Source of the DNA: Coriobacteriaceae bacterium EMTCatB1
Lineage (GTDB): Bacteria > Actinomycetota > Coriobacteriia > Anaerosomatales > Anaerosomataceae
Assembly: GCA_001950395.1 (NCBI GenBank)
Contig: BDLO01000001.1
Span: forward strand, 469,979 to 533,978
Direction of reading: 5' to 3'
DNA: 64,000 nucleotides
Position numbers and translations under genes: made by a program. The notes under the pieces were generated by a model. It did not search any database. It saw nothing but the letters and a program-made list of their open reading frames with translations, and was not told the origin of the DNA. Below are positions 29,821 to 49,467 of the stretch, in pieces. Numbering within the stretch: position 1 is the first letter of the stretch; each line of letters starts with the position of its first letter.

Positions 29821-31560
29821 CTACCTCGTGTGGCGGGAGGCGAAACCGAACGTCACGCTGCCGGGCGCGTGGCACGCGTCGCACGTGTAGGTCGTGAAGT
29901 CGCGACCGGGATGGCACAACGTGCAGTCCGACGCGGCGGGGTCGGGGCCTTCCAGCACGTGCGCAGAGATCGAGGGATGGACGAACCGGATGTCATCCCA
30001 GGTCGTCGGCATGTGGCAGCGCAGGCAATCAGAAGGCCCGACGTGCGGCACCGTAGTTGCGTGGCACGTGACGCAGGGCGTCGTGGGATCCTCGAAGATG
30101 AGCGTGGGGTGGCACAGGTTGCAGCGCATCGCGCGGTGAGTATCGCCGAGCTGTATCGGTTCTGGATGCACGACGGTGGACTTCACCGAGACGAAGGCTG
30201 TCGTCGTATGGCAGACGCCGCAGCGCGCGTAGTCAGGGCCGTGGCGCAGCGCGTGGCAGCTGGAGCAGACGTAGGGCTGCCCGATGGCTGTCGCGTACGC
30301 GTTGCTGGGGTGGCACTTCGAGCACGCAAGCGTCGCATGAGCTCCGGTGAGCACGAAGACGGAACTGTGCTTGAAGGTGGCGGGCTTGAAGCCAGCGGTG
30401 GTGTGGCACGAAGCACACTCTGTCAACCCGCCGTGCTGCGGACCGTGGCATCCGACGCAAACGGTGGGAGCGGCCCCGAAACTCCCTGATGCGTGGCACT
30501 TCCTGCAATCGAGGTAGGCGTGCTTGCCGGTGAGCGGGAACTTCGCGGCGTGGTCGAACGACGGCTGCCAGGAGTAGCGCTTCGGCGAGTGGCAGCGGCT
30601 GCAGTCTGTGAGCCCGCCGTGCTTGTCGCCGTGGCAGCCAACGCAGGTGGACGGCGTGCCGGCGAAGCGTCCCGACGGGTGGCACTTCGCGCACTGCGTC
30701 TTCGCGTGAGCACCCTCGAGGCGGAACTTCGCGGCGTGGTCGAACGATGGCTGCCAGGAGTACCTCTCGGGCGAGTGGCAGCGGCTGCAGTCTGTGAGCC
30801 CGCCGTGCTTGTCGCCATGGCAGCCAACGCAGGTGGACGGCGTGCCGGCGAAGCGTCCCGACGGGTGGCACTTCGCGCACTGCGTGTCAGCGTGCGTCCC
30901 TTTGAGAGCGAAGAACGCCGCGTGATCGAAGCCTTCTTTCGGCTGCCACATCCGAGCGGGATCGTGGCAGTCCTCGCACTTCGTGAGCCCGCCGTGGTGG
31001 ACGCCGTGGCAGTCGACGCATCCGCGCGGACGGGTCGGACCGGCGAAGCCCGTGTGACAGGCCTCGCAGTCGAGGTTCAGATGACCTCCGAGGAGCGAAA
31101 GGTGGGTCTGCGGGATCGGTTTGCGAGCAGACCAGGCGATCGCCGTGTGGCATGCCGAGCAGTTCTTCACGGACGCTGGGTGAGGGGAGCGCTTGAGGTG
31201 GCAGGACTCGCAGGCCTTGTCAGGAACCTTGCCGGATGAGTCGTGGCAGCGTGCGCAGGCAATCAGCGCGTGGAATGACTCGTTGAGGAAGGCCTCGCGA
31301 TGGGTGTAGTCGACGTTCGTCCACGAGGACGTGCTGTGGCAACGATCGCAAGCAAGGTTTGCATACTCGCCCGCATGCTGATAGGTGTGGAGCGGCGCCG
31401 TCTTGCACGAATCGCAGGTTGAGCCTGCCGGCACCTGAGGATGGCCTGCGGCGCGCGCTTGCTCCTGAGGCCGGAGCGAAGCGGCGACGCCTATCGCAGC
31501 AAGAATGATGATGGCTGCGAGCACGAAGATCGCTGCACGGGTCTTCGTTGCCTGCGACAT
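29821..31560 (-). CDS. Membrane-anchored multihaem c-type cytochrome, 24 CxxCH motifs, built from c7-like trihaem repeats
   Basis: 579 aa. N-terminal signal-anchor AAIFVLAAIIILAAIGVAA. I counted 24 CxxCH motifs. The unit FDHAAKF-x-L-x-G-x-HA-x3-C-x-KCHPSG-x-F-x-G-x-P-x2-CVGCHG-x2-HGGLT-x-C-x2-CH recurs. RBS GAGGAGG lies upstream of ATG 31560. Confidence 0.85.
   Translation of the reverse strand: MSQATKTRAAIFVLAAIIILAAIGVAASLRPQEQARAAGHPQVPAGSTCDSCKTAPLHTYQHAGEYANLACDRCHSTSSWTNVDYTHREAFLNESFHALIACARCHDSSGKVPDKACESCHLKRSPHPASVKNCSACHTAIAWSARKPIPQTHLSLLGGHLNLDCEACHTGFAGPTRPRGCVDCHGVHHGGLTKCEDCHDPARMWQPKEGFDHAAFFALKGTHADTQCAKCHPSGRFAGTPSTCVGCHGDKHGGLTDCSRCHSPERYSWQPSFDHAAKFRLEGAHAKTQCAKCHPSGRFAGTPSTCVGCHGDKHGGLTDCSRCHSPKRYSWQPSFDHAAKFPLTGKHAYLDCRKCHASGSFGAAPTVCVGCHGPQHGGLTECASCHTTAGFKPATFKHSSVFVLTGAHATLACSKCHPSNAYATAIGQPYVCSSCHALRHGPDYARCGVCHTTTAFVSVKSTVVHPEPIQLGDTHRAMRCNLCHPTLIFEDPTTPCVTCHATTVPHVGPSDCLRCHMPTTWDDIRFVHPSISAHVLEGPDPAASDCTLCHPGRDFTTYTCDACHAPGSVTFGFASRHTR
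30537..30885. repeat. Tandem 186-bp duplication inside the 24-haem cytochrome gene
   Basis: 30537..30699 and 30723..30885 (period 186 nt = 62 codons) align with only a handful of mismatches. Each copy encodes one trihaem unit (CAKCH, CVGCH, CSRCH). Confidence 0.9.
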
Positions 31561-31655
31561 GAGGGCGCCTCCTCATCTACACCGCGACTCCGAGGTCAGC
31601 GGGTCTTACCGGACAAGCATGCCACATCCACTCAGGTATCTCCATATGCTGCAGG

Positions 31656-31685
31656 GAGGGCGGGACCCGTGCGGGCCCCGCCCTC
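31656..31685 (-). terminator. GC-rich stem-loop between the two cytochrome genes
   Basis: On the minus strand: GAGGGCGGGGCCC-GCAC-GGGTCCCGCCCTC (13-bp stem with one G-T pair), 30 nt after the stop of the upstream gene. No T-tract follows, so it could be a partial terminator or an mRNA-stabilising structure. Confidence 0.45.
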
Positions 31686-31714
31686 TGCGACCTCATCTCA
31701 ACGTGCGCTGCACG

Positions 31715-34700
31715 TCAGTTGAGGATGTCGCGGACGGCGTCGCGCACCGCCTGCGAGATGACGCTCGTACCACCGAAGAAGCGCACCTCAGTGATGTCGT
31801 CCTTGTGTGCGGACAGTGCAGCTTCAGCAGCGGGATCCAGCGTCGTGCCCGGGGTCAGGAGCAGCACGGAGCCGTCCTTGCCCTGCAGGACACCGCCTGC
31901 GAGAGCATCCGGGTAGTTCGTTCCGAGCGTGAGAGCGACCTTGTTCCAGCCAAGGCCCGCCGTGTCGACGCCATACGCGGCGACAGCGGCAGCGGTCTCG
32001 TAGCGGTTGTCGCCAGCGAGCCGGGTCATCGTGACGCCGTCGATGGCGAAGTCACCGCTGACGACGCCTGGACCGCCGAGGATGATGCCTGAGGTCACAG
32101 CGTCGTTGACGGTTGCCGTGGTCGCGCCCGGAGCCACCAGGTAGACGGGCCAGATCTTCGCGGCGGCCAGCGGCGATGCCGCGAGCGCGTCCGGGAAGTT
32201 GGCGCCGGTGGCGAAGAACGCGGTGCCGTCGTACGCGCCGCCAGCGAGCTCGATGACCTTGTCAGCCACGAGCGAGGCGGTCTCGTAGCGGTTGCCACCA
32301 GCGATGCGGGTGACATTATCTGCGCCGAGCGTGGCGACGAGCGCGTCCTCGACGGCGCCGCTCACGGCGCCAGTGCCGCCCAGGATGTACGCCTTGGTGG
32401 CACCCAGGTCGTCGATCGCGTCAAGCACCGGAGTCGGATCCGAGCCGACGAGCAGCATCGGACCGTCCACCGCGCCGGCGAGCGCAGAGCCGCCGAGAGC
32501 GTCCGGCCAGTTGTACGCGGTGGCCAGGACGACCGCGTCAGCGCCACTCGGGAAGGCCTTCATGGCCATCGCGATGGCGGTCTCGACACGGTTGGCGCCT
32601 GCGATCTCGACGAGGTCGGTGGTCTTGGGAGCAGCACCGACGGCGATGCTCACGGAGCTGCTCACGAGGTCAGCAGCGTGGTCCTCGACAGCGCCCTTGG
32701 CGTCGCTGCAACGGTTCCACACGACGCGGTACTGCGCGGTGGCCGTCGGAGCGAGCATGAAGGCGAAGTTGCCGTTGGCGTCCGACTTGGTGGAGCCGAC
32801 GGTCGTCCAGCTGGAACCCTCAAGACGCTCGAGGGTGACGACGCCGTCAGCAGCAGCAGAGCCGTCGCCGTTCTTGATGGTGCCGGCGATGGCTGCGAAG
32901 CTGCCGTACGCGACGCTGGACGGCGCCTGGACGGTAGCGAACGAACCGCCCACGGACTTCGACCACTTGGTGCCCATGTTGAGAGCAGCGACGATGTACT
33001 CGGGGTTGTGAGCACCGTTCGAGCCCTCGGCAGTGAACGCCTTGTGGTTGAAGTACGCACGGCCAAGCAGCGCCTTCTCGGCGGCGCTGATCGTGCCGTC
33101 GGCGTTGGCCCGCGTGTACGCCGAAGCGTACGCGGCCTTCAGCGCGGCATCAGCAGTGGCTGCATCTTCCTGCCACTGCTCGATGTACGCCTGGAGCTGT
33201 TCTTGGGTCTGGCCGGTGTGGCACGGCGAGCACGAGTCGCCCCACGGAGCGAGACCCCACTCCTTGGCCTTGCCAGGCTCCATGATGAACATGCGGTGGC
33301 TGTACCGCTTCCACGACCGGTCCTCGTACCGCGGGATCGCGGTCTTCTCGGGGAAGTCGGAGCGCGTCGCAGGCATGTGGCACTGCTCGCACTTCGCGCC
33401 AGGCATGAACATGCCGGCCTGGTCGACGCCGTACAGGCCGCGGCCGTTGTAGACCTCGCGGGTCGGATGGCTGACCGGACGGCCGCCATCGATGTTGGCG
33501 TTCGGAGTCGGGACTGCCAAGAGCTTGCCATCCGAACCGACGATCGTGTTGATGTCGGTGCCGTTGGCGTTCGCCTCGACTTCCTTCTGCCAGTTGTGGC
33601 AGTCCTCGCACATGCTGTTGTTGCCGGACTCGGGGTCGCGCACCTTCATGCCGATGGCTTCGCCCTCTTCGGTGTCAGCACCGTGAGCGACGTGGCACAC
33701 CGCGCACTCCTGGCCGTAGTAGCCGGAGTTGCTGCTGGTGACGGTGAAGCCAGCCATGATGTCAGCGCCCTTGCGCTTGAGGTAGCCCTCACCGGTGTGG
33801 CAGGCGAGGCACGCGGCGCCAGAGGTCTTGGCGTTGAAGTGGCCAGCGCCAGTCTCCATGTACTCCGAGGCGCGCGGATCGGCTTCCAGGATTGCCACCT
33901 GGCCGTCGTGCGAAGAGGTCGCCTCGACCGCCTCGCCGTAGACGCCGCCGCGCCACGAGTGAGCCGAGAGCTGCCACTCGCTGTAGTACGAGTGCTTCAG
34001 CCCCTTGTTATGCCCGCTCGGATAGAACATGTAGGCGCTCGGGTTTGCGGTGAAAGACGCCTCGGTCGGGACGTCAGCGAACCCGTACAGCTTGTCCTCG
34101 ATGAAGTCCGTGAGCGTCAGGTCAGGCGTGTAACCCTTGTAGTTGTTGCCGGACTTGTAGCGCCCGTGGCACTGGCCGCACACGTCGGAGTCGAGGATGC
34201 GGGTGCTGTAGGCCTTGGCGTTCTTGTTCGTGGCTGCAGTGTTGAAGCCGACGATGCCGACGCCGGAGTTCCAGTGACCGCCCTGGCTCGCGGTGAGCTC
34301 GAGGCCGGTGCCGTGGCAGTTCTCGCACTGGATGCCCATGCCCTCGGCCCACGTCGCAAGGTCGGTCTCGGGCTTCGAGGGATCCTTGGCCATGCCGCGG
34401 CGAGTAGCGGACTGGGTAGCGTGAGTGCCGGTCGCAGCCGGTCCTGTGGCGGTGACGTACCCAAGATGGTGGCAGTTGCCGCAGGTGTAGTTGCCGACCT
34501 CAAGGCCGGTGCTTGCGATCTCCCACAGGTCGGGCTCGGCGGGATCCCACTCGAGACCTTCGACCATCAGGAACGGGTCGGACGTGCCAGGCACGTAGTT
34601 GTCGGGGTCGTACGCGTAGTTGAAGACCATGTACTCGCGAAGACCCGTGCCGGCGCCGACTGTGATGCCGATCTCGTCCTTGGAGATCATCTCGCCGACC

Positions 34701-34936
34701 GAAGCGCGGCCTGCGGGCCACATGTAGTCCGCCGACGGGTCAGCACCCGGGGTGGCGAACTTGCCGTGGGTGGTGTCAGCGTAGGTGTCGCCGTGGCATG
34801 AGACGCACGTCGCCTGGCCAGCGAACTTGAGACCATACTCATTCTCAAGCAACGCGTACGCGGCCGAGGGGACGAGCATCATCGCGGCGATCGCCACTAC
34901 GCTGAGAAGAGCAACGAACCGCTTTGATGAAAGCAT
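31715..34936 (-). CDS. Secreted nonahaem c-type cytochrome fused to an Ig-like (carboxypeptidase-regulatory-like) domain and three CWB2 cell-wall-binding repeats
   Basis: ATG 34936 follows GAAGGAGGAG; the ORF-track start 34978 has no RBS. Signal peptide MLSSKRFVALLSVVAIAAMMLVPSAAYA. Nine CxxCH motifs (CVSCH, CGNCH, CENCH, CGQCH, CLACH, CAVCH, CEDCH, CEQCH, CSPCH). Next comes VTLERLEGSSWTTVGSTKSDANGNFAF. The last ~300 aa (about nt 31718-32615) hold three repeats of the type AG-x-NR-x-ETA...PDALAG...P(M/V)(L/Y)LV...(I/F)(L/F)GG...(I/V)S. Confidence 0.85.
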   Translation of the reverse strand: MLSSKRFVALLSVVAIAAMMLVPSAAYALLENEYGLKFAGQATCVSCHGDTYADTTHGKFATPGADPSADYMWPAGRASVGEMISKDEIGITVGAGTGLREYMVFNYAYDPDNYVPGTSDPFLMVEGLEWDPAEPDLWEIASTGLEVGNYTCGNCHHLGYVTATGPAATGTHATQSATRRGMAKDPSKPETDLATWAEGMGIQCENCHGTGLELTASQGGHWNSGVGIVGFNTAATNKNAKAYSTRILDSDVCGQCHGRYKSGNNYKGYTPDLTLTDFIEDKLYGFADVPTEASFTANPSAYMFYPSGHNKGLKHSYYSEWQLSAHSWRGGVYGEAVEATSSHDGQVAILEADPRASEYMETGAGHFNAKTSGAACLACHTGEGYLKRKGADIMAGFTVTSSNSGYYGQECAVCHVAHGADTEEGEAIGMKVRDPESGNNSMCEDCHNWQKEVEANANGTDINTIVGSDGKLLAVPTPNANIDGGRPVSHPTREVYNGRGLYGVDQAGMFMPGAKCEQCHMPATRSDFPEKTAIPRYEDRSWKRYSHRMFIMEPGKAKEWGLAPWGDSCSPCHTGQTQEQLQAYIEQWQEDAATADAALKAAYASAYTRANADGTISAAEKALLGRAYFNHKAFTAEGSNGAHNPEYIVAALNMGTKWSKSVGGSFATVQAPSSVAYGSFAAIAGTIKNGDGSAAADGVVTLERLEGSSWTTVGSTKSDANGNFAFMLAPTATAQYRVVWNRCSDAKGAVEDHAADLVSSSVSIAVGAAPKTTDLVEIAGANRVETAIAMAMKAFPSGADAVVLATAYNWPDALGGSALAGAVDGPMLLVGSDPTPVLDAIDDLGATKAYILGGTGAVSGAVEDALVATLGADNVTRIAGGNRYETASLVADKVIELAGGAYDGTAFFATGANFPDALAASPLAAAKIWPVYLVAPGATTATVNDAVTSGIILGGPGVVSGDFAIDGVTMTRLAGDNRYETAAAVAAYGVDTAGLGWNKVALTLGTNYPDALAGGVLQGKDGSVLLLTPGTTLDPAAEAALSAHKDDITEVRFFGGTSVISQAVRDAVRDILN

Positions 34937-35249: not shown

Positions 35250-35326
<77 letters not shown>

Positions 35327-35338
35327 ACGGCGCAGTGG

Positions 35339-35367
35339 ATTATACGGAAGCCGCGGAGCCGCTGCAA
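35339..35367 (-). promoter_or_regulatory. Promoter of tRNA-Asn
   Basis: Minus strand reads TTGCAG, a 17-nt spacer, then TATAAT. The -10 element ends 12 nt upstream of the mature tRNA 5' end. Confidence 0.55.
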
Positions 35368-35430
35368 CACGCGGGAGCGCCGCTGCAACACGCGCGAGAG
35401 CCGTTGCGGTACAATCGGTGCTCGCCGGCC

Positions 35431-35505
35431 GGGCCCGTAGCTCAACGGTGGAGCAGGGGACTCATAATCCCTTGGTTGCAGGTTCGAATCCTGCCGGGCC
35501 CACCA
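35431..35505 (+). tRNA. tRNA with CAT anticodon (elongator Met, or Ile2 if lysidine-modified), CCA encoded
   Basis: Acceptor GGGCCCG/CGGGCCC, anticodon arm GGGGA-CTCATAA-TCCCT, T arm GCAGG-TTCGAAT-CCTGC. The paired G1-C72 argues against an initiator. A TACAAT -10-like hexamer lies at 35410-35415. Confidence 0.88.
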
Positions 35506-35540
35506 GCGCTGCCTCGCGTTGGGCGCCAAGGAGGTGCGAG

Positions 35541-36638
35541 ATCGGCCGTCGGATCGAGAGGCGCATCCGCGCCAAGGACGCCAAAGTCAAGCCGCTGCGA
35601 TGGCTCGTTGCAGGCGGTCTGGTGGTCGTCGCCCTCGTGGGAGCAGTCGCGCTGTCAGCGAGGTGGCGGGCTGAGCATCGGGTGACTGTGGGAGAGGCGC
35701 CCCCCGCGACCGTGGGCGTTGCCGTGGCAAGCGAAAGCGTCGAGGCGAGCGGCGTCGTGGCTGGACGCGTGGAGGTGCCGAACCTCGTCGGCATGACGTT
35801 GGACGAGGCGAAGGCGCTGCTTGCCACCGGCGGTCTGGCGGTCCGAGCGCTTGCGTCCCCCGCTGGCGAGACGACGCCTGGGGTGGTGCTCGACCAAGAT
35901 CCCGCCCTGGGAACCATCGTCGGGCGGGGCGGCACGGTCTCGGTGTGGTACGCGTCTTCAGACTCGGTGGCGGCGACGAGCGCTCCCAATGACCCTGACG
36001 CCGCCAGAGGCGGGCGGTTCGTGGTGTGCATCGACCCTGGGCACCAAGACAAGCCGAACCTCGCGCGCGAACCGATAGGTCCGGGAGCGACGGAGACCGT
36101 GCCGAAGTGCGCGGCTGGCGTGACGGGCGTCGTGACGGGGCAGAGCGAGCCGGAGGTCGCGCTCGCGATCGCGCTGGATCTGAAGCGCGCTGTGGAAGAA
36201 CGCGGGGTGACTGTGGTGCTGACTCGCACGACGAATGCGGTCGACATCTCGAACGCCGAAAGAGCGCGTATCGCCAACGAGTGCGGCGCCGACCTCTTCG
36301 TCCGGATCCACGCAGGGTCGGACACCAACGGCGATGTCAGTGGCGTGCGTACACTCTACCCCGCGGGCAATGAGTGGGTCGCGCCGATCAGCTCCGCGAG
36401 CCGCGCGGCCGCACAGGCGATCCAGCGCGCGCTTGCGGACGCAACGGGCGCGCAGGACCGGGGCACGGCGAGCAGGAGCGACCTCGCGGGCTTCAACTGG
36501 TCGCGGGTGCCGGCGGTGCTCGTCGAGTGCGGCTGCCTCACGAACCCGGTCGAGGACCGGCGTCTGGCGACGGAGGCGTACCGGTCTGCCGTGGCTCGTG
36601 GCATCTGTGCGGGTGTGTTACAGTACCTGGAAGACTGA
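35541..36638 (+). CDS. N-acetylmuramoyl-L-alanine amidase (Amidase_3) with N-terminal TM anchor and PASTA domain; start codon uncertain
   Basis: Amidase_3 core (VVCIDPGHQD..., ADLFVRIHAGS, VLVECGCLTNPVED). PASTA-like segment VPNLVGMTLDEAKALLATGGLAV...VVLDQDPALGTIVGRGGTVSVWY. The frame is open back through the tRNA gene. No ATG, GTG or TTG lies between the tRNA and the TM helix. ATC 35541 sits 6 nt after a perfect AAGGAGG. The first canonical start is GTG 35622, inside the TM helix. Confidence 0.8.
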   Translation: MGRRIERRIRAKDAKVKPLRWLVAGGLVVVALVGAVALSARWRAEHRVTVGEAPPATVGVAVASESVEASGVVAGRVEVPNLVGMTLDEAKALLATGGLAVRALASPAGETTPGVVLDQDPALGTIVGRGGTVSVWYASSDSVAATSAPNDPDAARGGRFVVCIDPGHQDKPNLAREPIGPGATETVPKCAAGVTGVVTGQSEPEVALAIALDLKRAVEERGVTVVLTRTTNAVDISNAERARIANECGADLFVRIHAGSDTNGDVSGVRTLYPAGNEWVAPISSASRAAAQAIQRALADATGAQDRGTASRSDLAGFNWSRVPAVLVECGCLTNPVEDRRLATEAYRSAVARGICAGVLQYLED

Positions 36639-37480: not shown

Positions 37481-38329
37481 ATGGTGGCTGACGAGACCAA
37501 GCAGAGCGGCAAGCGCGTCATCGCCGCGCTGATCGTCGTTGTGGTGGTTCTGGCCGCTTTTGGAGCGGCGTACGCGCTGCTTGGCGGTGCGGATCTGGTC
37601 GCGGATCTGCTCGGCGGCGGCTCCCAGCAGCCGGCTGCGCAGAAGCCGTCGACGCCCGCTAAGCCCAGCACGCCTTCGGAGCAGCCCTCGACGCAGCCTG
37701 CCGAGAGCTCTGAGCCGACTGCGAGCACCGAGCCCACCGAGAGCGCCGAGACGCCGACGAGCGGCAGCACCTCTGGGAGCACGTCAGGCGGCGCCTCGTC
37801 GCCGGCGGTGACGCTCCCGACCAGCGACCAGGCGGCGCGCATGTACTGGGAGCAGGTCGCCAGCCAAGAGCAGATCGGCAAGTTGGTGCGCGGCGAGGTG
37901 AAGAGCATCGCGTTCGGCAGCGTGGCGATCTCTGGCGATACGGCCACCGTGCCGCTGACCGTCACCTACACGAGCGGGTCGTCGCTCTCGGGCCGCATGG
38001 TGCTGCGCAAGTACGGCACTGCGTGGTACTTCTCGAGCATCGCCCGTTCCGGCAACCCGCTCACGGTGACGACTGGCAAGTCGGCCGACCTGGGCGTCGT
38101 CAGCACCATCGTCAACCAGCAGGCGAGCAACCAGGACCTCGTGAAGGGCATCGTGGACGGCAGCTATAAGAGCTGCACGGTGAACGGCGTGAGCTCCGGC
38201 TCGGGAACGGCAACCGTGCGCATCACGCTGTCCGGATCGGATGCGCCGGTCGCGGGCCGGGTCACCTGCATCAGCAAGGTGATCGACGGCACGAAGATGT
38301 GGTTCATCACGTCCTTCGCGAAGAACTAG
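37481..38329 (+). CDS. Membrane-anchored hypothetical protein with a Pro/Ser/Thr/Glu-rich linker and duplicated C-terminal module
   Basis: 282 aa. N-terminal TM segment (VIAALIVVVVVLAAFGAAYALL), a low-complexity linker (PSTPAKPSTPSEQPSTQPAESSEPTASTEPTESAETPTSGS), then two related ~55-aa modules ending GTAWYFSSIARS and GTKMWFITSFAKN. Confidence 0.55.
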   Translation: MVADETKQSGKRVIAALIVVVVVLAAFGAAYALLGGADLVADLLGGGSQQPAAQKPSTPAKPSTPSEQPSTQPAESSEPTASTEPTESAETPTSGSTSGSTSGGASSPAVTLPTSDQAARMYWEQVASQEQIGKLVRGEVKSIAFGSVAISGDTATVPLTVTYTSGSSLSGRMVLRKYGTAWYFSSIARSGNPLTVTTGKSADLGVVSTIVNQQASNQDLVKGIVDGSYKSCTVNGVSSGSGTATVRITLSGSDAPVAGRVTCISKVIDGTKMWFITSFAKN

Positions 38330-38358: not shown

Positions 38359-40167
38359 GTGGAGCTGCGCGATTACCTAGCCGTCATCCGCGCTCGCAAG
38401 TGGGTCATCATCCAGGCGGTCGTGATCGTTACGGTCACGGCCGCCATTGCGAGTGCGCTCATGCCGCCCGTGTACGAGGGTCAGGCGAAGGTCCTCATCT
38501 CGGAGAAGGACACTGGCGCGGCCCTGCTGGGGCAGGTGTTCTCGGAGTTCTCGCAGCCGGAACGCGGCTTGCAGACGCAGGTGCAGCTCATGCAGATCCG
38601 CCCGCTTGCGGAGAACACGATCCGCAAGCTCGGGCTGAAGATGACGCCTGAGCAGCTGCTGAAGAAGGTCGAGATCAAGGCCGTCGGGCAAACGAACATC
38701 GTGGAGATCACGGCGAAGGCAGGGGACGCCAAGACGGCTGCCGACATCGCGAACACGCTTGCCGACGAGTTCGTCGCGTGGTCGAAGGACTACAAGCGCG
38801 AGAGCATCCGGGCCGCGGCCGACGAGGTGGAGCGGCGGCTGGAGACCGCCAAGCAGGAGATCCTCGACCTCGGGCGCGAGATCAGCGAGCAGGGCAAGAC
38901 TGACGAGCTGTCAGCCGAGCTCGCGATCGCCATCAACAGCTACACCGACCTCGCGGGACGGCTGGAGGAGCTTCGAATCCAAGAGCAGCTGGAGTCCGGT
39001 TCGGGTCGCGTGGTGAGCCCTGCGGTGGTGGCCGCTGAGCCCGTCGAGCCGCGGCCGCTGCGCAATGGCGCTCTGGGGATCGCGGTGGGGCTGATGTTCG
39101 GGCTCGGCATGGCGTTCCTGTACGAGTACCTCGACGACACCGTGAAGAGCACCGAGCAGGTCGAGGAGCTGCTGGGCGCGCCGGTGCTGGGCGTCATCCC
39201 GGCCGAGAAGATCGAGAAGGACGAGAAGCGGCGCCTGACGCTCGTGACGCACCCCGGCACGGCAGCTGCCGAGGCGTACCGCGTGCTTCGCAACTCGCTC
39301 GACTTCGTGAACTTCCAGCACGACATCGCCTCGATCATGGTGACGAGCGCGGCGCCGGCCGAGGGCAAGTCCACCGTGGCCGCGAACCTGGCGGCCGGTC
39401 TCGCGCAGGCGGGCAAGAAGGTGGCATACGTCAACTGCGACTTCCGCAAGCCCACGACGCACCACTTCTTCCCGGTCTCCAACGCCGTGGGGCTCTCGGA
39501 CGTCCTCGCTGGCACAGTGACGCTTAAGAGCGCGCTTCAGCGGGTCGGAGAGGTCGGCGAGCTGCTCGTGCTCACCAGCGGTAAGCTCCCGCCGAACCCG
39601 AGCGAGCTTCTCGGTTCGGAGAAGATGCAGCTCATCGTCGAGGAGCTCAAGAAGTGGGCGGACTGGGTCATCGTGGACACCCCGCCGCTTCTTGCGGTGG
39701 CCGACGGCTCTGCCGTGGCGCGCTGGATCGACGGCGTACTGTTCGTCAGCAAGGCAGGCGTGTCCACGAGGGGCGCCATCAAGCAGTCGGCGGAGCTCCT
39801 GCAGCAGGTGGGCGCTCGCGTCGTGGGCGCCGTGGTGTGGGGCCTGGAGACGAGCGGCGGCGGGTCGTCGTACTACTACGGCGGCAAGGGCTACGCCGGC
39901 TACTACCGGTACGCGGACTACTACAAGCAGTACGCGGGACCGGCAGAAGCGGAGCCCGTGCGCGGGCGCAGGGGCGAGCAGGCGTCCACGGGCGCGTCCG
40001 AGATCTACATCCCGCCGGTGAGCCCCGGCCGCAAGTTCCTCGCGAGCGTCGGTCGGATCATGGCCGGCGTGCTCGCGTTCCTGGCCGTGGTGGCGATCGT
40101 CGCAGCCGTCGTGTACTTCATCGACCAGGCCTTCGGCTGGGGGATCGTGCAAGGGCTGCTGGGGTGA
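38359..40167 (+). CDS. Polysaccharide co-polymerase (Wzz domain) fused to a BY-type tyrosine autokinase
   Basis: GTG start. Wzz-like N-terminus with two TM segments flanking a coiled region. Walker A SAAPAEGKSTVAANLA and Walker B-like VIVDTPPLL. Tyr cluster SSYYYGGKGYAGYYRYADYYKQY, followed by an extra ~75-aa tail containing a hydrophobic helix. Confidence 0.85.
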   Translation: MELRDYLAVIRARKWVIIQAVVIVTVTAAIASALMPPVYEGQAKVLISEKDTGAALLGQVFSEFSQPERGLQTQVQLMQIRPLAENTIRKLGLKMTPEQLLKKVEIKAVGQTNIVEITAKAGDAKTAADIANTLADEFVAWSKDYKRESIRAAADEVERRLETAKQEILDLGREISEQGKTDELSAELAIAINSYTDLAGRLEELRIQEQLESGSGRVVSPAVVAAEPVEPRPLRNGALGIAVGLMFGLGMAFLYEYLDDTVKSTEQVEELLGAPVLGVIPAEKIEKDEKRRLTLVTHPGTAAAEAYRVLRNSLDFVNFQHDIASIMVTSAAPAEGKSTVAANLAAGLAQAGKKVAYVNCDFRKPTTHHFFPVSNAVGLSDVLAGTVTLKSALQRVGEVGELLVLTSGKLPPNPSELLGSEKMQLIVEELKKWADWVIVDTPPLLAVADGSAVARWIDGVLFVSKAGVSTRGAIKQSAELLQQVGARVVGAVVWGLETSGGGSSYYYGGKGYAGYYRYADYYKQYAGPAEAEPVRGRRGEQASTGASEIYIPPVSPGRKFLASVGRIMAGVLAFLAVVAIVAAVVYFIDQAFGWGIVQGLLG

Positions 40168-40565
40168 GGGATGGCGTCTGTCCTGGTACCACGCCTTGTG
40201 CTTTGAGAGCGTCATTTCGCGCCAGCTCATTGCACCGGTGGGTTACGACGAAGGACTCTCTCGTCGCCACGTGGGTGTGATGGAGATTCTTGTTGGTTTC
40301 CTTTGTCTTGCTGTGGCTGTGGCGCACGGCACTGAGGGTCATTGTGAGGCCGTTCTTGAGACTGCGTGTTGGCCGAGAAGGCAAGTGTTGCTGCCGGGGT
40401 TGGTATGGGGTGCAACATGCCATTAGGAGAATCTGGGTCTTGGCAGGCTACGTACTGTCGAACGTGTCGTTCCGTAGATGGCCCCGCTAGTGGATGTGTC
40501 GTTACGGTAGCAACTCCCCGGATACGTTACACGATGTCCTTCGTAATCTACTGGGAGACAACGTC

Positions 40566-42047
40566 ATGTCGGATGGTGTGAGAAGGGCTATACGAAGCCT
40601 TGGGCGGGAAAGCGCCCGGTATGGCTTCGGCCTGGCTTTAGCGCAGCTCGGCTCATTCCTGCTGATGCCCATACTGACTCATGCTCTCACGCGGTCTGAT
40701 TACGGCGTTGTGTCCGTTGCGCTGACAACAGCATCGGTGATCTCCACGGTAGCCGGTGCGGGGTTGAGTAGTGCTCTCCTCAGGTCGTACTACGACATGG
40801 GTGACGATGTTGGCCGGAACACTGTTGTATCGACGAGCTTCATCGTCGTGGCAGCATGGTCATGTCTGCTGGTCGCTCTGTCTGCACTAGTTGGCCGCGC
40901 GGGTTCCGCTGCTCTCTTTGGGAGTCCTACGCTTGCTTATCTTGTCGTGGTAGTCGTCTTCGAGGCGACGGGGCGTGCGGTAGTTTCTGTCTTGCAATCA
41001 GTGCTACGCGCAGAACACAGGGCTGGTCAATTCGTTGCGGTCAGTCTTGTGATGCTGGTTGCTCGCGTTGTCGTGAGCTGGCTTCTTGTCGCGCCGCTCG
41101 CATTGGGCTTGAAGGGATATGCTGTGGGCACAGTCATCGGAATGCTCACAGGGCTTGTGCATAGCGTGCTGCTGGTGCGCCGTCGTCTAGAAACAAGATT
41201 CTCTCTCGTAGAAGCGCGATTGCTTGTGTCGTTCGGATTGCCAGTGATGGTAGCGAACCTCGCGTACGCTGTGCTTGTCGGAGCTGATAGATACTTCTTG
41301 CGGGCATGGCATGGGCTTGAGGCAGTAGCTGTCTACAACGTGGGGTATCAGCTTGCAAGTATCGTGACGGTACTTCTTGTGACTCCAATCAACATGGCAT
41401 GGCCTACGATTCTGCTGCCCATGAAGGACAGTCCGGATCTGCCTGAGTTTGTGAGCCGCTCGCTCACGATGGTCTGCGGGTTGTGTGGCTGGGCGGTAGT
41501 CTCACTCGCATTCGGTGGTCCATTACTGGTAGAGATTGTCGCTCCACAAGGGTACGGTGACGCTGCCATAGTCATTCCAATCGTGGCGCTCGCGAACTCA
41601 ATGGTGTTGGTGCAGAGGGTATTGGCGGCCGGTCCTGAGCTGACACGGCGTATGAGAAGGTATGCCTTTCCTTATCTAGTTGCCGCGATAGCGGTAGTGG
41701 TGTTGGACTGGCTGGTGATTCCTGGTTGGGGCATGTATGGAGCGGCTGCTGCGACGTTGATTGCGTACGCACTGTTGCCGGTGATTGCCTATCGCGTCGG
41801 TACGACTCTGCTCGCTATTCATGTGGAACGGTCGCGCCTGGTGGCGATAGGTGGGCTGACTGCAGGTATGACCGCGCTGGGCATCTTCGCGGGTGCCGCG
41901 GTGCGCGGATCGGTACTTGGTGGCACACTGGCTATGGCGGCGGGTGTCATCTCATACCCGGCGCTACTCTTTGTGCTGCGGGTCATAGATAGGCGAAGTG
42001 TGTTGATGCTTTGGCGTTCACTAGGTGTGGCTCCTAGCTCTGATTAG
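40566..42047 (+). CDS. wzx: Polysaccharide flippase (Wzx, MOP superfamily)
   Basis: About 490-aa polytopic protein with many TM segments, in a Wzx-like position within the cluster. Start chosen at ATG 40566 (MSDGVRR). Visibly lower G+C than the flanks. Confidence 0.7.
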   Translation: MSDGVRRAIRSLGRESARYGFGLALAQLGSFLLMPILTHALTRSDYGVVSVALTTASVISTVAGAGLSSALLRSYYDMGDDVGRNTVVSTSFIVVAAWSCLLVALSALVGRAGSAALFGSPTLAYLVVVVVFEATGRAVVSVLQSVLRAEHRAGQFVAVSLVMLVARVVVSWLLVAPLALGLKGYAVGTVIGMLTGLVHSVLLVRRRLETRFSLVEARLLVSFGLPVMVANLAYAVLVGADRYFLRAWHGLEAVAVYNVGYQLASIVTVLLVTPINMAWPTILLPMKDSPDLPEFVSRSLTMVCGLCGWAVVSLAFGGPLLVEIVAPQGYGDAAIVIPIVALANSMVLVQRVLAAGPELTRRMRRYAFPYLVAAIAVVVLDWLVIPGWGMYGAAAATLIAYALLPVIAYRVGTTLLAIHVERSRLVAIGGLTAGMTALGIFAGAAVRGSVLGGTLAMAAGVISYPALLFVLRVIDRRSVLMLWRSLGVAPSSD

Positions 42048-42101
42048 ATCAACGAAGAACTTCGTTTGCCCCATAGCCTGTAATGCCCGTGAAGAGTAGG
42101 A

Positions 42102-43319
42102 GTGGCGAGCGCAGTGAAAGTAGTCCTCTTCTCGTTCCATCTCTATCCAGGCTCCGCAATCGGGGGCATGCGGCCGCACGCGCTCGCCAAGGGTTTGGCC
42201 GCTCGCGGTCATAGAGTCCACGTTGTGACGGCAGAGGAAAGTGCGGCAGATAACGCCGCGTATGCGACGATTGTCGTCCCGAACCAGCACTCTACAAGGC
42301 GCATCGATAAGCTGTTGCGTTATCCAGATATGTACGCGCGGTGGGTACGAGACGCTGTAGCCGAGCATAGAGTGCAGGAGATATTAAGAGAGTGTGACGC
42401 CGTAGTGACGACAGGACCCCCGTTTTCAGTGCACGCAGTCGGACTTCGCTCCAGTATCTCTAGGCGGTCGTGGGCTTGGCTTGCTGAATTCCGGGACTTG
42501 TGGACTGATGGCCCGTATTACACCCTTGGCCCAATCAGACGACTCATGGATTCACGGTATGAGAGGGATGTCCTGAGAGCGGCTGACACCGTCGTGGCTG
42601 CAACGGAGACCATGGCGGACTGTCTGCGCAGAGCAACCACTACTAGGATCAGGACGGCGTATTCGCCTGTGGCTGAGGTTCCTGAAGAAATCCTCGCGCA
42701 AGGAGAGACAGCCCGCAGAAACTCGCGATGCCTCCGGATTGCCCATGCTGGCTACCTGTACAAGGGTCGCCGGGACGTTAGGCCATTGCTGAGAGCAATC
42801 AAGACTTTGAGAGAGCGAGGCGAGGTCTGCGAAGGAGATGTGGAGCTTCACTTCTTCGGGCCTATGGACAAGACTTTGGCGGAGAGCATCGATACACTGT
42901 CTCTCGGTGATTTTGTGCTCGTAAGAGGGGTGCTTCCTCGGGACGCGCTGTGGCGCAGCCTTGCCGAGATGGACGCGCTGCTTGTGATTCGATGGCAGTC
43001 GCATCTGGACGCTCCGTTCATACCTGGCAAAGTGCTCGAGTATGCATCCTTTGGGGTTCCTGTGATCCTAGTGAACGCAGTGCCCAATGGCGAAGCGGAG
43101 AAGGCGTTGGAGGAGATTGGCTGTGGCCTGCTGTGCTTCGACGAGGCGGACATCATCGACGCACTGACGACCCTCTTGCGGCACAAGCGCGAAAGAGGCA
43201 CCGTGCGTTGCGCGGACACTAGCCGCTCCGGGCGGTTCTCAGCGGAAAGGTTTGTTGAAACCTACGAAGAGATAATTGCCGAGGCGGTCACGACGCGAGT
43301 TGAGGGTAATGCTGACTGA
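42102..43319 (+). CDS. Glycosyltransferase (GT-B fold, GT4-like)
   Basis: 405 aa. N-terminus VVLFSFHLYPGSAIGGMRPHALAKGLAARGHRVHVVT. The C-terminal half has a GT1/GT4-like layout. GTG start. Confidence 0.7.
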   Translation: MASAVKVVLFSFHLYPGSAIGGMRPHALAKGLAARGHRVHVVTAEESAADNAAYATIVVPNQHSTRRIDKLLRYPDMYARWVRDAVAEHRVQEILRECDAVVTTGPPFSVHAVGLRSSISRRSWAWLAEFRDLWTDGPYYTLGPIRRLMDSRYERDVLRAADTVVAATETMADCLRRATTTRIRTAYSPVAEVPEEILAQGETARRNSRCLRIAHAGYLYKGRRDVRPLLRAIKTLRERGEVCEGDVELHFFGPMDKTLAESIDTLSLGDFVLVRGVLPRDALWRSLAEMDALLVIRWQSHLDAPFIPGKVLEYASFGVPVILVNAVPNGEAEKALEEIGCGLLCFDEADIIDALTTLLRHKRERGTVRCADTSRSGRFSAERFVETYEEIIAEAVTTRVEGNAD

Positions 43320-44670
43320 CAAGTACGCGAGGTTGGCCGGATTGGCTGTTGCTTCGGCGCTATGCGGGGTTGCGGTAGCCGCATGGGGAGTCTGGGCTGC
43401 TGTCGCGATCATTGTTCTCGTCGTTGCGTTGACGCTGCTGCGAGATGGTCTGCCAGCGCTGGTACTCGCGTATGTGGCAACACGCCCAGCCGCAGATGTC
43501 TTCATTCGGCAGAGCATTGCGGGTCTGAGCCCCGGTCAAATCTGGGCTTTGGGGCTGTTGGCGCTCACTTTGGCATGGGGTTTGAGCCTCTATCCGAGGA
43601 TCATGCATGAATTGTTGCCATTAGGAGTTCTTCTTGCCGTGTACGCGGTTCTTGGAGTGCTCCGTGGCGACGCTATAGTCGCACTCGAGCGCGGCGCGCG
43701 CATCCTGTCGTGGGCGGCATTGGTGCCTGTGGCAGGTACGGCACTTCAAACGGGTGTCGACCACAGGTGGGTCTTGCGATCCGGGTATGGGTTTGCCCTG
43801 CTAGCATGTGCTGTCGCAGGCTATTCGTTCATGACAGGCCGCTACGGCGAGTCCTACTATGTCCCCGGATCACGACTGACGCTGGAATACCAGGCGCCGC
43901 ATGCCCTGGCTACGATGTTGGTGCTCGCGTCTCCGTTTGTTCTGTACGCGCTTCTTTCATCGAGATCGTGGCACCGGTGGGTACACGCTGGCGTACTGAC
44001 TCTACTGACGGCGCTGACCGTGCTATCGCTTGTTAGGAGCAGCGTTCTGGCCCTGGCAGTACTTCTCTTGGTAGCCATAGCAGAAGTCACGCGTCGGGGC
44101 TCGAAGCGTCAACGTTCAACCGTGGTGATTACCGCATTCCTGTTACTGGGAGTTTGGATACGATTTCAGAGCGTAATACTTCAGCGTCTTTCAGAGCTAT
44201 TGCCGGGTCGAGCAAGTCCTGAATCCCTTGGGAGTGGCAGGGGGTTGTTCTGGTCTGCGCTCCTGAAGGAGGCAATAGGGCGTCCGGCGAGCGCAATCAT
44301 CGGTATGGGCGGAGGAGCTGATCGAGCGATCATTGCGGCTTCAACAGGGCTGCAGATCGGTGCCCATAGTGACCCCTTGGAACTTCTTGCAGTCGGAGGT
44401 TTCGTACTGTTTTCGGCGTATGTGTTCTTCCTCTATGTTCCGGTGAGTCGTGCCCTGGGCTGCTTGCGAAGCGGCGGAAGTGACGATGCCACGAATCTGG
44501 GAATCGCAATCGTTGCTGGAGCTGCTGGCTTCAGTGTGCTGGCTCTCACAAACGGTGCCATGGGATATCAGGGCAGCGTGGCTTTTGGCCTCCTCGGCGC
44601 GCTCGGGCTGTGGCTGCCGTACCTTCAACAGGCGGAAGAACGGGAATCTATTGGCGGGCATGTTCTATAG
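43309..44670 (+). CDS. wzy: O-antigen polymerase/ligase-like membrane protein (Wzy family)
   Basis: About 450-aa polytopic protein with a large loop between late TM segments. ATG 43309 overlaps the upstream GT stop. Confidence 0.6.
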   Translation: MLTDKYARLAGLAVASALCGVAVAAWGVWAAVAIIVLVVALTLLRDGLPALVLAYVATRPAADVFIRQSIAGLSPGQIWALGLLALTLAWGLSLYPRIMHELLPLGVLLAVYAVLGVLRGDAIVALERGARILSWAALVPVAGTALQTGVDHRWVLRSGYGFALLACAVAGYSFMTGRYGESYYVPGSRLTLEYQAPHALATMLVLASPFVLYALLSSRSWHRWVHAGVLTLLTALTVLSLVRSSVLALAVLLLVAIAEVTRRGSKRQRSTVVITAFLLLGVWIRFQSVILQRLSELLPGRASPESLGSGRGLFWSALLKEAIGRPASAIIGMGGGADRAIIAASTGLQIGAHSDPLELLAVGGFVLFSAYVFFLYVPVSRALGCLRSGGSDDATNLGIAIVAGAAGFSVLALTNGAMGYQGSVAFGLLGALGLWLPYLQQAEERESIGGHVL

Positions 44671-44925
44671 CACTCATCATGAAGAGTAGTGCCCGCTGCT
44701 TGATTGTTTGTGGGATTTCCCGAGTAATCTGTGTGTGGACGTCGCTGGAGTCGATGCAGCATCTGCATGTGACGAGCGGGAATGGGTCGAGATGGCGGTG
44801 GCTGTTGTCGATGAGGGAGGCTATGCAGTGGGTTTATCTGTCACGCCGTCTATAGCTGGAATTGATAATCGTTGCCACAGACACTCTCGGATGCATCTGC
44901 CCGTGCGAGAAGCTAAGGGTTTTTC

Positions 44926-48372: not shown

Positions 48373-48420
48373 GCATTCTGCTAGCATGGCCTTGCCCGCG
48401 TACGAGAGGAGACGCAGTCC

Positions 48421-49459: not shown

Positions 49460-49467
<8 letters not shown>
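48421..49467 (+). CDS. gmd: GDP-mannose 4,6-dehydratase
   Basis: [27 protein letters not shown], catalytic YAVSK, and [20 protein letters not shown] start. Confidence 0.93.

Follow-up and report, generated by a model that had tools for sequence, protein, structure and literature searches.

On the minus strand of the window (the whole stretch of 64,000 nucleotides of EMTCatB1 DNA analysed here, whose coordinates are used throughout), one continuous ORF at 31715-34936 encodes a protein of 1073 aa. It begins with a Sec signal peptide, continues with nine CxxCH motifs and a three-helix bundle, and ends in an Ig-like beta-sandwich followed by three CWB2 repeats, five parts in all. All features given with coordinates below lie on the same strand. 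An in-frame ATG upstream at 34978 would extend the product to 1087 aa, and a GGAGG-type ribosome-binding site precedes both ATGs (34936 and 34978); on three public contigs, genes called independently begin at 34936 and give the 1073-aa product. Directly downstream of this nonahaem gene lies a second multihaem gene (GAV31166.1/1c0069; 29821..31560; 579 aa), termed the partner in the following. According to the ORF coordinates, a spacer of 154 nt (31561..31714) separates the two genes, and no consensus promoter or terminator was found in it. One public contig (L032) covers the nonahaem gene and continues across the spacer into the beginning of the partner.

GenBank covers only the last 335 aa of the nonahaem protein, under the name "CwlB amidase precursor" (GAV31167.1/1c0070; 31715..32722), and exact sequence comparison identified this product as aa 739-1073. 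Because only the 335-aa tail is annotated, the nonahaem protein is absent from published cytochrome lists. The published reading, a CwlB/LytB-type N-acetylmuramoyl-L-alanine amidase precursor of 335 aa with the upstream haem-motif region outside the gene, carries its name in GenBank and in Table S5 of the transcriptome paper but is already contradicted and can practically be discarded: a Pfam profile search found no amidase domain and, in the 335 aa, only CWB2 repeats, the frame stays open for 1073 uninterrupted codons with high third-position G+C, the independent gene calls on the three contigs give the long product, and homologues at 45-68% identity keep the full-length architecture.

The signal peptide (aa 1-27; 34856..34936) was read by eye. 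A basic n-region precedes a hydrophobic core and an AxA cleavage site, with MLSSKRFVALLSVVAIAAMMLVPSAAYA before and LL after the cleavage predicted behind AYA, and this pattern is kept in 16 homologues (alignment read by eye), in agreement with the Sec-type signal proposed in the initial annotation. Neither a Cys nor a twin-arginine (RR) motif is present in the signal peptide; since it has no Cys, the nonahaem protein has no lipobox.

The nine-haem domain and its relatives

The haem domain (aa 28-661; 32954..34855) comprises nine CxxCH motifs, a beta-sheet subdomain (approximately aa 60-150) and a C-terminal three-helix bundle (aa 578-661). The nine motifs noted initially were counted again and are exactly nine (aa 44, 152, 204, 253, 376, 411, 443, 516 and 569); only one Cys lies outside them, and each motif is at least 90% conserved over ~110 homologues. 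In the AlphaFold2 model of the domain, pLDDT was mostly above 90. It exceeded 95 in the bundle, whose helices (578-610, 618-637 and 645-661) align to the C-terminus of OcwA.

OcwA (TherJR_2595, PDB 6I5B) is a surface nonahaem cytochrome of Thermincola potens. Exposed at the cell surface, it can reduce iron oxides and electrodes in vitro and, slowly, also nitrite and hydroxylamine; its physiological role is without genetic proof. The initial annotation had left the likeness to OcwA at an equal haem count, which our searches extend to homology across the whole nine-haem domain. The nonahaem protein matched 6I5B in phmmer (E 1.2e-14) and ADG83432.1 in BLASTP (25% identity, E 3e-28), and the family profile matched 6I5B at E 6e-63 in one stretch that includes all nine haems (chain residues 13-493 of 526). 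All nine CxxCH motifs align with those of 6I5B in the same order, and both proteins have the beta-sheet subdomain after haem 1 and the C-terminal three-helix bundle. The next-best structure for the family profile was the surface cytochrome OmhA (6QVM; E 4e-18), while structures of NrfA, MccA and ONR scored far lower. The comparison with OcwA, NrfA and octahaem relatives that had been suggested initially therefore places OcwA closest by a very large margin, followed by OmhA.

OmhA, the undecahaem S-layer-associated cytochrome of Carboxydothermus ferrireducens, resembles the nonahaem protein in belonging to the OcwA/OmhA surface-cytochrome clade, in its two (here predicted) penta-coordinate haems and in its association with a Gram-positive outer envelope. 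It differs in having eleven haems, with an N-terminal two-haem extension, and no CWB2 module was reported for it in the literature consulted. NrfA, ONR and MccA share the C-terminal haem module and the three-helix bundle, but have five or eight haems instead of nine and a similarity far weaker than that of OcwA.

In OcwA, the distal residues H282 and H381 lie over the two penta-coordinate haems, and they align to H315 and H490 of the nonahaem protein. H315 is nearly invariant (at least 90% conserved in about 110-116 homologues), and both residues are invariant in an alignment of 17 CWB2-bearing proteins. This conservation implies that the two pockets would each retain one distal, non-bonding His, as in OcwA. 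In place of H281 and H380 of OcwA, which have been reported to be conserved across all OcwA sequences, the nonahaem protein has Lys314 and Ser489. At the two His-His sites, the consensus of the family is K/x-H and S/N-H, and HH is kept at the first site only by two members (P0008 and P0011). Both the two conserved open-site pockets, which are typical of catalytic haems, and these replacements speak against the electron conduit considered below. Six other non-motif His residues are conserved (H57, H221, H326, H418, H547 and H643), enough for six bis-His haems, and the conserved residues suggest a coordination pattern like that of OcwA, as judged from alignments and haem-free models. The conserved M511, M521 and M552, likewise placed in haem-free models, are candidates for a His/Met haem such as haem 9 of OcwA; a Met is conserved in the segment aligned to SHLMKVVMP of OcwA.

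Other identities were rejected. The protein is not an NrfA, since it has nine CxxCH and no CxxCK motif, the Pfam model PF02335 covers only positions 229-376 of 438 and no NCBIfam NrfA model matched. Nor does the locus encode an NrfA system: an NrfH/NrfBCD donor is not adjacent, the downstream gene encoding instead a poly-c7 protein that carries 24 CxxCH motifs. For a decahaem cytochrome of the MtrC/OmcA type, the match to PF22113 was only partial (39.8 bits, profile 28-146) and the host has no outer membrane; MtrC and OmcA structures were absent from the PDB sequence matches of both the protein and the family profile.

The beta-sandwich and the wall-binding module

The haem domain is followed by an Ig-like or transthyretin-like beta-sandwich (aa 662-745; 32702..32953), whose strands were modelled by AlphaFold2 with pLDDT above 95 and which gave weak matches to both folds. 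The initial annotation had likened this module to the carboxypeptidase-regulatory domain. The beta-sandwich stands, but the label holds only in part: the CarboxypepD_reg match was below threshold (E 4e-4; 21.1 bits vs a cut-off of 32.3), and PF13620 matches of homologues were also sub-threshold (26.3 bits vs 32.3), while some precomputed PF13620 assignments exist among them. W740 is nearly invariant across the family. The linker to the CWB2 module (aa 746-773; 32618..32701) is poorly conserved in the alignment; in the full-length model, pLDDT was above 90 for aa 746-770 and a low-confidence stretch starts at aa 771.

The C-terminus consists of three tandem CWB2 repeats (approximately aa 774-874, 875-968 and 969-1073; 31718..32617), predicted to form one wall-binding module. 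The PF04122 search proposed in the initial annotation bore out all three: the family matched in three stretches at E 2e-46, with 156.8 bits far above the cut-off of 24.9, and the triplet is canonical. Sequence matches to solved Clostridioides difficile structures were found for Cwp8 (E 2e-15), Cwp6 (E 5e-14) and also SlpA. A model of aa 760-1073 (AlphaFold2; pLDDT 94, pTM 0.91) was compared with the PDB by Foldseek, and the 11 best matches were all three-repeat CWB2 modules of Cwp6, Cwp8 or SlpA, with TM scores of 0.76-0.81 and rmsd values of 3.2-4.3 A over whole modules at 22-26% identity; no other fold scored below E 1e-3 in this search. The three repeats are thus predicted to pack as a single compact module, as in these proteins.

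Like Cwp6, Cwp8 and the high-molecular-weight subunit of SlpA, the nonahaem protein has three CWB2 repeats and the same predicted whole-module fold. The passenger is different, as C. difficile CWB2 proteins carry an S-layer subunit, an amidase or a protease instead of a multihaem cytochrome; further differences are the high-G+C actinobacterial host and the position of the triplet, which in part of the family lies inside the passenger domain. With a second CWB2 protein encoded in the window and others at related loci, CWB2 serves these genomes as a general anchor. At a distance of 3.4 kb, the nonahaem gene is neighboured by a polysaccharide locus that includes a WecG/TagA-family transferase; this is suggestive of a local source for the wall polymer that the triplet would bind. 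We take this arrangement to parallel the C. difficile cwp cluster with its PSII polymer locus.

OcwA itself (525 aa) lacks the ~410 additional C-terminal residues that make up the beta-sandwich, the linker and the three CWB2 repeats. By eye, its precursor has a lipobox-like N-terminus (...FTVGC), in contrast to the AxA site without Cys described above. We know of no recognized wall anchor in OcwA; a homologue with a well-understood anchor thus provides an independent, sequence-level argument that the OcwA family works at the wall.

Fusions of the nonahaem domain with CWB2 were found in at least 16 clusters (90% identity) from uncultured Coriobacteriia. The initial view that such a combination is unusual in a high-G+C genome holds insofar as the fusion is rare overall, but it is not a one-off. 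No description of an OcwA-type nonahaem protein fused to CWB2 was found in the searchable literature. Some family members carry the triplet at the C-terminus, others as an insertion between haems 1 and 2. In a rough tree, CWB2-bearing forms are spread over at least three clades; other nonahaem variants carry SLH or DUF5648, a domain of unknown function. Because the triplets occupy two different positions, repeated acquisition of CWB2 by the nonahaem family is suggested.

The partner gene and the electrode-associated host

The partner, whose sequence is identical to GAV31166.1, consists of one N-terminal transmembrane helix followed by eight c7-type triheme units, with 24 CxxCH motifs, one CxxCK and 28 further His residues. 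Cytochrome_C7 (PF14522) matched in six stretches (E 1.5e-26), while the match to TIGR04257 'nanowire_3heme' was weak and below cut-off (E 1.3e-5). No solved structure was matched by sequence at E 1e-3, and the NapC/NrfH family gave no match in Pfam or NCBIfam. Tandem c7-type triheme units are also found in the Geobacter poly-c7 'nanowire' cytochromes of the GSU1996 type, from which the partner differs by its eight units, its N-terminal membrane anchor and its Gram-positive host. One triheme unit corresponds to a 186-bp tandem duplication (30537..30885; Tandem Repeats Finder, 1.9 copies, 96% match). In other assemblies of the locus the product has 517 aa and one unit fewer, so whether the partner has 21 or 24 haems depends on the assembly.

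In 10 related loci with differing flanking genes, the nonahaem gene is immediately followed by a gene for a protein with 20-24 haems. The two genes form a conserved cassette that recurs in related uncultured genomes. A single chain of ~24 haems distinguishes this cassette from the gene neighbourhood of OcwA, whose partner is different. Neither a quinol dehydrogenase nor any other membrane electron-input module adjoins the cassette, and no quinones were detected in Anaerosoma tenue, a relative; both observations count against a conduit.

[quoted passage not shown] A cathode is the only setting from which this organism is known. As the host comes from an electrode biofilm, the reservation in the initial annotation about an organism without extracellular electron transfer does not apply. 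The LepA of the host is 100% identical to EMTCatB1 LepA and shares 96% identity with LepA of Parvivirga hydrogeniphila Es71-Z0120, an obligate Fe(III) reducer. Cultured Anaerosomatales have Gram-positive walls by microscopy. The host thus resembles that of OcwA in being Gram-positive and electrode-associated, but belongs to the Actinomycetota and not to the Bacillota. Among its relatives, A. tenue has a reported OcwA homologue and yet does not reduce Fe(III), which also fits a conduit poorly.

Transcripts of 1c0070, the 335-aa fragment, reached 8923, 3497 and 3964 TPM under closed circuit, BrES and open circuit, respectively, which made it the 9th most abundant EMTCatB1 transcript under closed circuit. 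The partner (1c0069) yielded 646, 155 and 156 TPM under the same conditions, an approximately 4-fold increase under closed circuit with concordant replicates; the nonahaem mRNA was ~14-fold more abundant than that of the partner. The nonahaem gene is not listed among the reported differentially expressed genes, and its transcript is not clearly circuit-dependent, which again speaks against a conduit. Ranking among the ten most abundant transcripts on the cathode, the gene may encode the main surface cytochrome of EMTCatB1. Since the 'amidase' label hid the gene, published interpretations of the biocathode omit this possible main surface cytochrome.

Possible roles at the cell wall

Little is understood of electron passage through the thick wall of Gram-positive bacteria or of the tethering of surface cytochromes at it. 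With moderate confidence, we regard the nonahaem protein as the wall-anchored outer component of a two-protein conduit across this wall, with function and electron direction inferred. The protein would be exported and its haems attached, and the CWB2 triplet would bind a secondary wall glycopolymer non-covalently, possibly the product of the neighbouring polysaccharide locus, which would place the haem domain within the wall or on its surface. Anchored to the membrane through its N-terminal helix, the partner would reach across the wall space as a haem wire, a shape that we assume from the Geobacter poly-c7 protein. This wire would exchange electrons with the nonahaem protein, which in turn would trade them with a solid or partner outside the cell, such as an electrode, minerals of Fe(III) or Mn(IV), humics or another cell. 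Electrons would enter the cell on the cathode and move towards a membrane hydrogenase or formate dehydrogenase, and would leave it in relatives that reduce minerals. We count in favour of the conduit that wall attachment appears to have been selected repeatedly in the nonahaem family, by CWB2 in two positions and in the SLH and DUF5648 variants.

CWB2 also tethers ordinary wall enzymes. For this reason, the anchor alone neither implies electron transfer to solids nor excludes a wall-retained reductase of a soluble substrate. Of the wall-anchored terminal reductase proposed initially, the wall-anchored architecture is upheld by the OcwA homology, the canonical CWB2 module and the Gram-positive lineage, while 'terminal reductase' is not established, as the flow on a cathode would be inward.

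The strongest alternative, which we nevertheless consider unlikely, is a reducing or detoxifying enzyme for nitrite, hydroxylamine, NO or a sulfur oxyanion. Its two open-coordination haems would be catalytic, CWB2 would prevent its diffusion from a cell that has no periplasm, and the partner would serve as electron donor. The conserved pair of distal His pockets fits this alternative, as does the reduction of nitrite and hydroxylamine by OcwA in vitro, but OcwA turns over nitrite only about once per minute. The C-terminal half of the haem domain matches the NrfA model PF02335 (36.7 bits vs 24.1), and NrfA, ONR and MccA structures are detectable relatives of the family profile. This match is confined to profile positions 229-376, so that only the C-terminal module of NrfA aligns; NrfA equivalog models do not match, a CxxCK haem is lacking, and the closest solved relatives, by a very large margin, are the surface cytochromes OcwA and OmhA. 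Some homologues are named 'ammonia-forming cytochrome c nitrite reductase' by NCBI, the EMTCatB1 papers mention homologues of nitrite-reduction genes in the genome, and expression largely independent of the circuit would suit such an enzyme. Against this stands a partner that is not of the NrfH/NapC type and whose ~24-haem chain goes far beyond the need of such an enzyme.

Improbable, in our view, is an abundant, constitutive haem layer in the wall that acts as a redox buffer or 'capacitor' or scavenges oxidants, either storing electrons or protecting a strict anaerobe. The very high transcript level in all three conditions and the ~14-fold excess over the partner mRNA are consistent with it, and strictly anaerobic relatives are positive for both catalase and oxidase. 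The conserved adjacency to a membrane-anchored haem chain, the ~4-fold induction of this partner under closed circuit and the transfer of electrons to solids by the homologue OcwA argue against it.

Returning to the conduit, a further-reaching version of it is tentative. Here the two genes may form a self-sufficient trans-wall conduit of monoderm Actinomycetota, in which a ~24-haem membrane wire and a polymer-docked OcwA-type cytochrome would provide the main route for cathode electrons into EMTCatB1 and so feed a methanogen. If this is true, the repeated independent capture of CWB2, at the C-terminus or in a loop of the haem domain, would mean that docking to wall polymers is a selected and tunable trait in Gram-positive extracellular electron transfer. 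CWB2 proteins can be extracted selectively, which makes the triplet a concrete experimental handle on wall binding, and the conserved two-gene cassette is small enough for transplanting.

Reading frame, parts and published annotation of the nonahaem gene

The nonahaem gene (31715-34936, minus strand) forms a single uninterrupted reading frame of 1073 aa from ATG 34936 to a stop at 31715, with GAAGGAGG just upstream of the start. Were an in-frame ATG at 34978 used instead, the product would be 14 residues longer; an exact-sequence look-up of this 1087-aa variant returned no match. Third-position G+C (0.85) was usual for genes of the window. We found exactly nine CxxCH motifs, all within aa 44-573, and only one Cys outside them. 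At the N-terminus, a basic n-region and a hydrophobic core precede a predicted cleavage site between AYA and L, there is neither a Cys nor a twin-arginine motif, and this signal-peptide pattern is common to the homologues. The initial annotation had read nine haem motifs, three CWB2 repeats and a Sec-type signal at these positions and had proposed a CWB2 HMM search; reading frame, motif count and Pfam bear this out, the last with three repeats at E 2e-46 (156.8 bits vs a cut-off of 24.9). Several haem-motif families of Pfam also matched, as did the NrfA model, partially and with the C-terminal part of the model. The Ig-like module was modelled by AlphaFold2 as a confident beta-sandwich, so this part of the earlier description stands; its likeness to the carboxypeptidase-regulatory family is less certain, since the CarboxypepD_reg match (aa 683-738) fell below the Pfam threshold.

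GenBank annotates only the tail of this gene. The 335-aa product 1c0070 (GAV31167.1) starts at an internal GTG (nt 32722) and covers aa 739-1073; its name, CwlB amidase precursor, was rejected, as Pfam found no amidase domain anywhere in those 335 residues. The 738 codons with all nine haem sites carry no annotation, and the protein therefore figures neither in the genome paper, with its '18 c-type cytochromes', nor among the five cytochromes highlighted by the transcriptome paper. Three public contigs, 3.4-4.0 kb long (runs DRR198554, DRR198557 and DRR198558), each carry an independent call of the full 1073-aa product, and the locus is present in six consecutive runs (DRR198554-59). Because the transcriptome study comprised six RNA-seq samples, these contigs are probably transcript assemblies.

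No rRNA operon lies within the window, and LepA (1147-3024) served to identify the organism: its sequence is 100% identical in EMTCatB1. Identity is 96% with LepA of the obligate Fe(III) reducer Parvivirga hydrogeniphila (strain Es71-Z0120) and 87% with LepA of Anaerosoma tenue. The published EMTCatB1 genome (1.84 Mb) has a G+C of 67.2%, in agreement with the window. On a thermophilic electromethanogenic cathode, 68% of the cells were EMTCatB1, and direct electron uptake through multihaem cytochromes has been proposed for it. Electron microscopy has shown Gram-positive walls in Anaerosomatales.

Membership of the OcwA family and the wall anchor

A single-sequence PDB search found 6I5B (E 1.2e-14), identified as OcwA of Thermincola potens by its cluster names ('outer cell wall terminal reductase A', ADG83432.1). 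With a profile of 116 family members, 6I5B was matched in one stretch at E 6e-63, covering residues 13-493 of 526 and all nine haem sites. The next-best structure was the Carboxydothermus ferrireducens cytochrome OmhA (6QVM; E 4e-18); NrfA, MccA and ONR came next, none of them better than 1e-14. In BLASTP, aa 37-652 aligned with the OcwA precursor at 25% identity (E 3e-28). The initial annotation had treated the equal haem count as a count without demonstrated homology; the three sequence searches establish homology over all nine haems. Membership of the octahaem tetrathionate reductase (OTR) type and of the MtrC type was rejected by the PDB sequence and profile searches.

In the published OcwA structure, six haems are bis-His, one is His/Met and the remaining two are penta-coordinate, with a His-His pair above each (H281/282 and H380/381). 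The present protein retains H282 and H381 as the conserved H315 and H490, whereas H281 and H380 are replaced by Lys314 and Ser489, so that one published feature of the family is missing. Six further His and three Met outside the motifs are conserved in the alignment, and judged from sequence the conserved residues would be enough for the coordination scheme of OcwA. AlphaFold2 predicted, both with high confidence, a beta-sheet subdomain after haem 1 and a C-terminal three-helix bundle. On the basis of sequence homology, conserved coordination residues and modelled subdomains, we assign the protein to a distinct actinobacterial subfamily of the OcwA family. Foldseek with the full-length model returned only weak matches to NrfA, MccA, Cwp8 and Ig-like structures, and 6I5B was absent from the top 50; haem-free, loop-rich cytochrome models match poorly in Foldseek, and we therefore relied on sequence profiles.

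A shallow alignment made the full-length model poor over the CWB2 region. A second model, restricted to aa 760-1073 and based on an alignment of 16 CWB2 triplets, reached a pLDDT of 94 and a pTM of 0.91. Its 11 significant PDB matches were all Clostridioides difficile Cwp6, Cwp8 or SlpA high-molecular-weight subunit (TM 0.76-0.81, covering the whole three-repeat module), and the first match beyond these had E 6.5e-3. As modelled, the anchor is a canonical CWB2 module.

Searched exhaustively against 1.84 billion representative proteins, aa 28-760 yielded no more than 148 relatives at E 1e-3, and 48 relatives at E 1e-30. Genome matches belonged to uncultured Coriobacteriia, Thermoleophilia and unclassified Actinomycetota, with two exceptions that are probably mis-binned. 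The scan returned uncultured genomes only, and neither EMTCatB1 itself nor P. hydrogeniphila or A. tenue was among the results; since the window's own genome was missing, absence of the cassette from the other two cannot be concluded. Sixteen clusters (at 90% identity) carry CWB2, in two topologies. The repeats are C-terminal in the present protein and in P0001, P0002, P0008, P0011, P0014 and P0016, and are inserted between haems 1 and 2, in a loop near aa 113 of the present protein, in ten clusters. Ig-like domains (one or two), DUF5648 repeats or SLH domains form the C-terminal end of other members. When the haem cores were placed on a rough neighbour-joining tree (no support values), CWB2 forms occurred in at least three separate clades, and the triplets in P0014 and P0016 differ strongly from that studied here (66 bits vs 216-337 bits for the others), which together suggests several independent acquisitions of CWB2. 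The OcwA precursor (P0498, ADG83432.1) starts with MSKKAVKLGIILMILLLVTFTVGC, by eye a lipoprotein-like signal with a lipobox-like TVGC. If this is a lipoprotein signal, OcwA would be lipid-tethered, whereas its actinobacterial relatives have wall-binding modules.

The window encodes a second CWB2 protein (54144-56345, plus strand) with three PPC (pre-peptidase C-terminal) domains and three CWB2 repeats, and related genomes contain further CWB2 proteins close to their cytochrome loci; CWB2 is therefore a general surface-anchoring system of this lineage. By annotation string and position, the second protein is probably 1d0406, also named 'cwlB amidase precursor' although the protein has no amidase domain; its putative transcript was low (49 TPM). 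Between the two CWB2 proteins lies a surface-polysaccharide biosynthesis locus (38359-54079, plus strand), and this position makes it a candidate source of the CWB2 ligand. Its genes encode a Wzz/tyrosine-kinase, a flippase, an O-antigen-ligase-like polymerase, a WecG/TagA-family transferase and an initiating sugar transferase, alongside three glycosyltransferases, a GDP-mannose dehydratase and epimerases. Between 40 and 48 kb of the window, G+C is 56-59% vs 66-70% elsewhere.

We found no paper in the searchable literature that combines CWB2 with a multihaem cytochrome. The description of Anaerosomatales mentions an OcwA homologue and no anchor, and the EMTCatB1 papers did not recognize the gene as a cytochrome. 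In this gene a dedicated, predicted wall-polymer anchor is joined to a cytochrome of the OcwA family, within a compact cassette that is conserved, and this reading corrects a published annotation and the interpretation of a published transcriptome.

The multihaem partner and the two-gene cassette

The gene directly downstream (29821-31560, minus strand) encodes a product identical to GAV31166.1 (emb_1c0069). A single transmembrane helix is predicted at its N-terminus, and the sequence contains 24 CxxCH motifs, one CxxCK and another 28 His. The CxxCH motifs fall into eight c7-type triheme units. One such unit corresponds to a recent tandem duplication of 186 bp (30537-30885, minus strand; 96% identical), which is collapsed in other, short-read assemblies of the locus (L035-L038; 517-aa product), so the count of 21 or 24 haems is either assembly-dependent or polymorphic. 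No solved structure matched this partner by sequence at E 1e-3, and an exact-sequence look-up gave no match.

In 10 related loci the nonahaem gene has a 20-24-haem gene of 520-610 codons as its immediate downstream neighbour; the flanks of the cassette vary by genome (purine genes, histidine and tryptophan genes, or, here, rpoD and tRNA genes). In nine loci of Thermoleophilia-type relatives (L009, L011, L013, L015, L016, L021, L023, L027 and L029) the neighbour has four haems and ~340-380 aa, and that of L013, the only one scanned, has an IPT/TIG domain, which points to a different partner arrangement there. No quinol dehydrogenase was adjacent to the nonahaem gene in any locus examined. Scans for consensus promoters and terminators around the cassette gave nothing useful in this high-G+C DNA. 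The window is almost entirely plus-strand, and the cassette is among its very few minus-strand gene sets. Divergent genes for tRNA-Asn (minus) and tRNA-Met (plus) at 35251-35505 separate it from the PASTA-domain amidase gene amiC (1d0389; 35538-36638).

Expression on the cathode and a probable role in electron exchange

Table S5 of the transcriptome paper gives values for closed circuit, the methanogenesis inhibitor BrES and open circuit. For 1c0070, the CWB2 fragment of the nonahaem gene, these were 8923, 3497 and 3964 TPM; under closed circuit it ranked 9th among EMTCatB1 coding sequences, and only one gene annotated as a cytochrome (1d0125) ranked higher. For comparison, rpoD stood at 556 TPM under closed circuit, the one condition given for it. 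The closed-circuit replicates of 1c0070 were far apart (2700 and 15145), so a current dependence of its transcript is not established. The partner (646, 155 and 156 TPM) had concordant replicates and was induced ~4-fold under closed circuit. A hypothetical protein of 282 aa (37481-38329, plus strand) combines an N-terminal membrane anchor with a Pro/Ser/Thr-rich linker, and Pfam gave no match for it. By its rank among the plus-strand genes that follow amiC it would be 1d0391, whose transcript was at 537 TPM under closed circuit vs 68 with BrES and 45 under open circuit, with concordant replicates.

Given the demonstrated architecture, homology, host, expression and gene pairing, we think it reasonably probable that the nonahaem protein is a wall-anchored terminal cytochrome that works with a membrane-anchored haem wire in extracellular electron exchange. 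Its CWB2 module would bind the wall polymer, the partner would span the wall and the two proteins would touch each other; the identity of the external redox partner is likewise a step that we infer. The direction of electron flow would be set by the setting, inward on a cathode and outward to minerals. The main alternative, a wall-retained reductase of soluble N- or S-oxyanions, would account for the two conserved open-site pockets and the NrfA-like C-terminal module; OcwA itself has weak nitrite and hydroxylamine activity, and CWB2 tethers ordinary enzymes as well. However, the nonahaem protein has no CxxCK haem and no NrfH-type partner beside it, the partner's chain is very long for such a reductase, and the similarity to two known surface cytochromes is overwhelming. 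We consider this alternative unlikely and favour the terminal cytochrome.

Other electron-transfer genes lie towards the ends of the window. A complex-I-like operon (nuoB, C, D, H ... L; 56826-64000, plus strand) includes a gene for a 761-aa protein in which 4Fe-4S ferredoxin domains are joined to a GltD-like FAD/NAD(P) oxidoreductase; NuoE, F and G were not seen within the window. The transcriptome paper highlights other nuoCD genes (1c0337 and 1c0336), which lie in a separate minus-strand cluster. At the opposite end, directly upstream of lepA, the 3' part of a further multihaem cytochrome gene (1-1143, plus strand), cut by the window edge, encodes six CxxCH motifs in 381 aa, with weak MtrC-domain and c7 matches.
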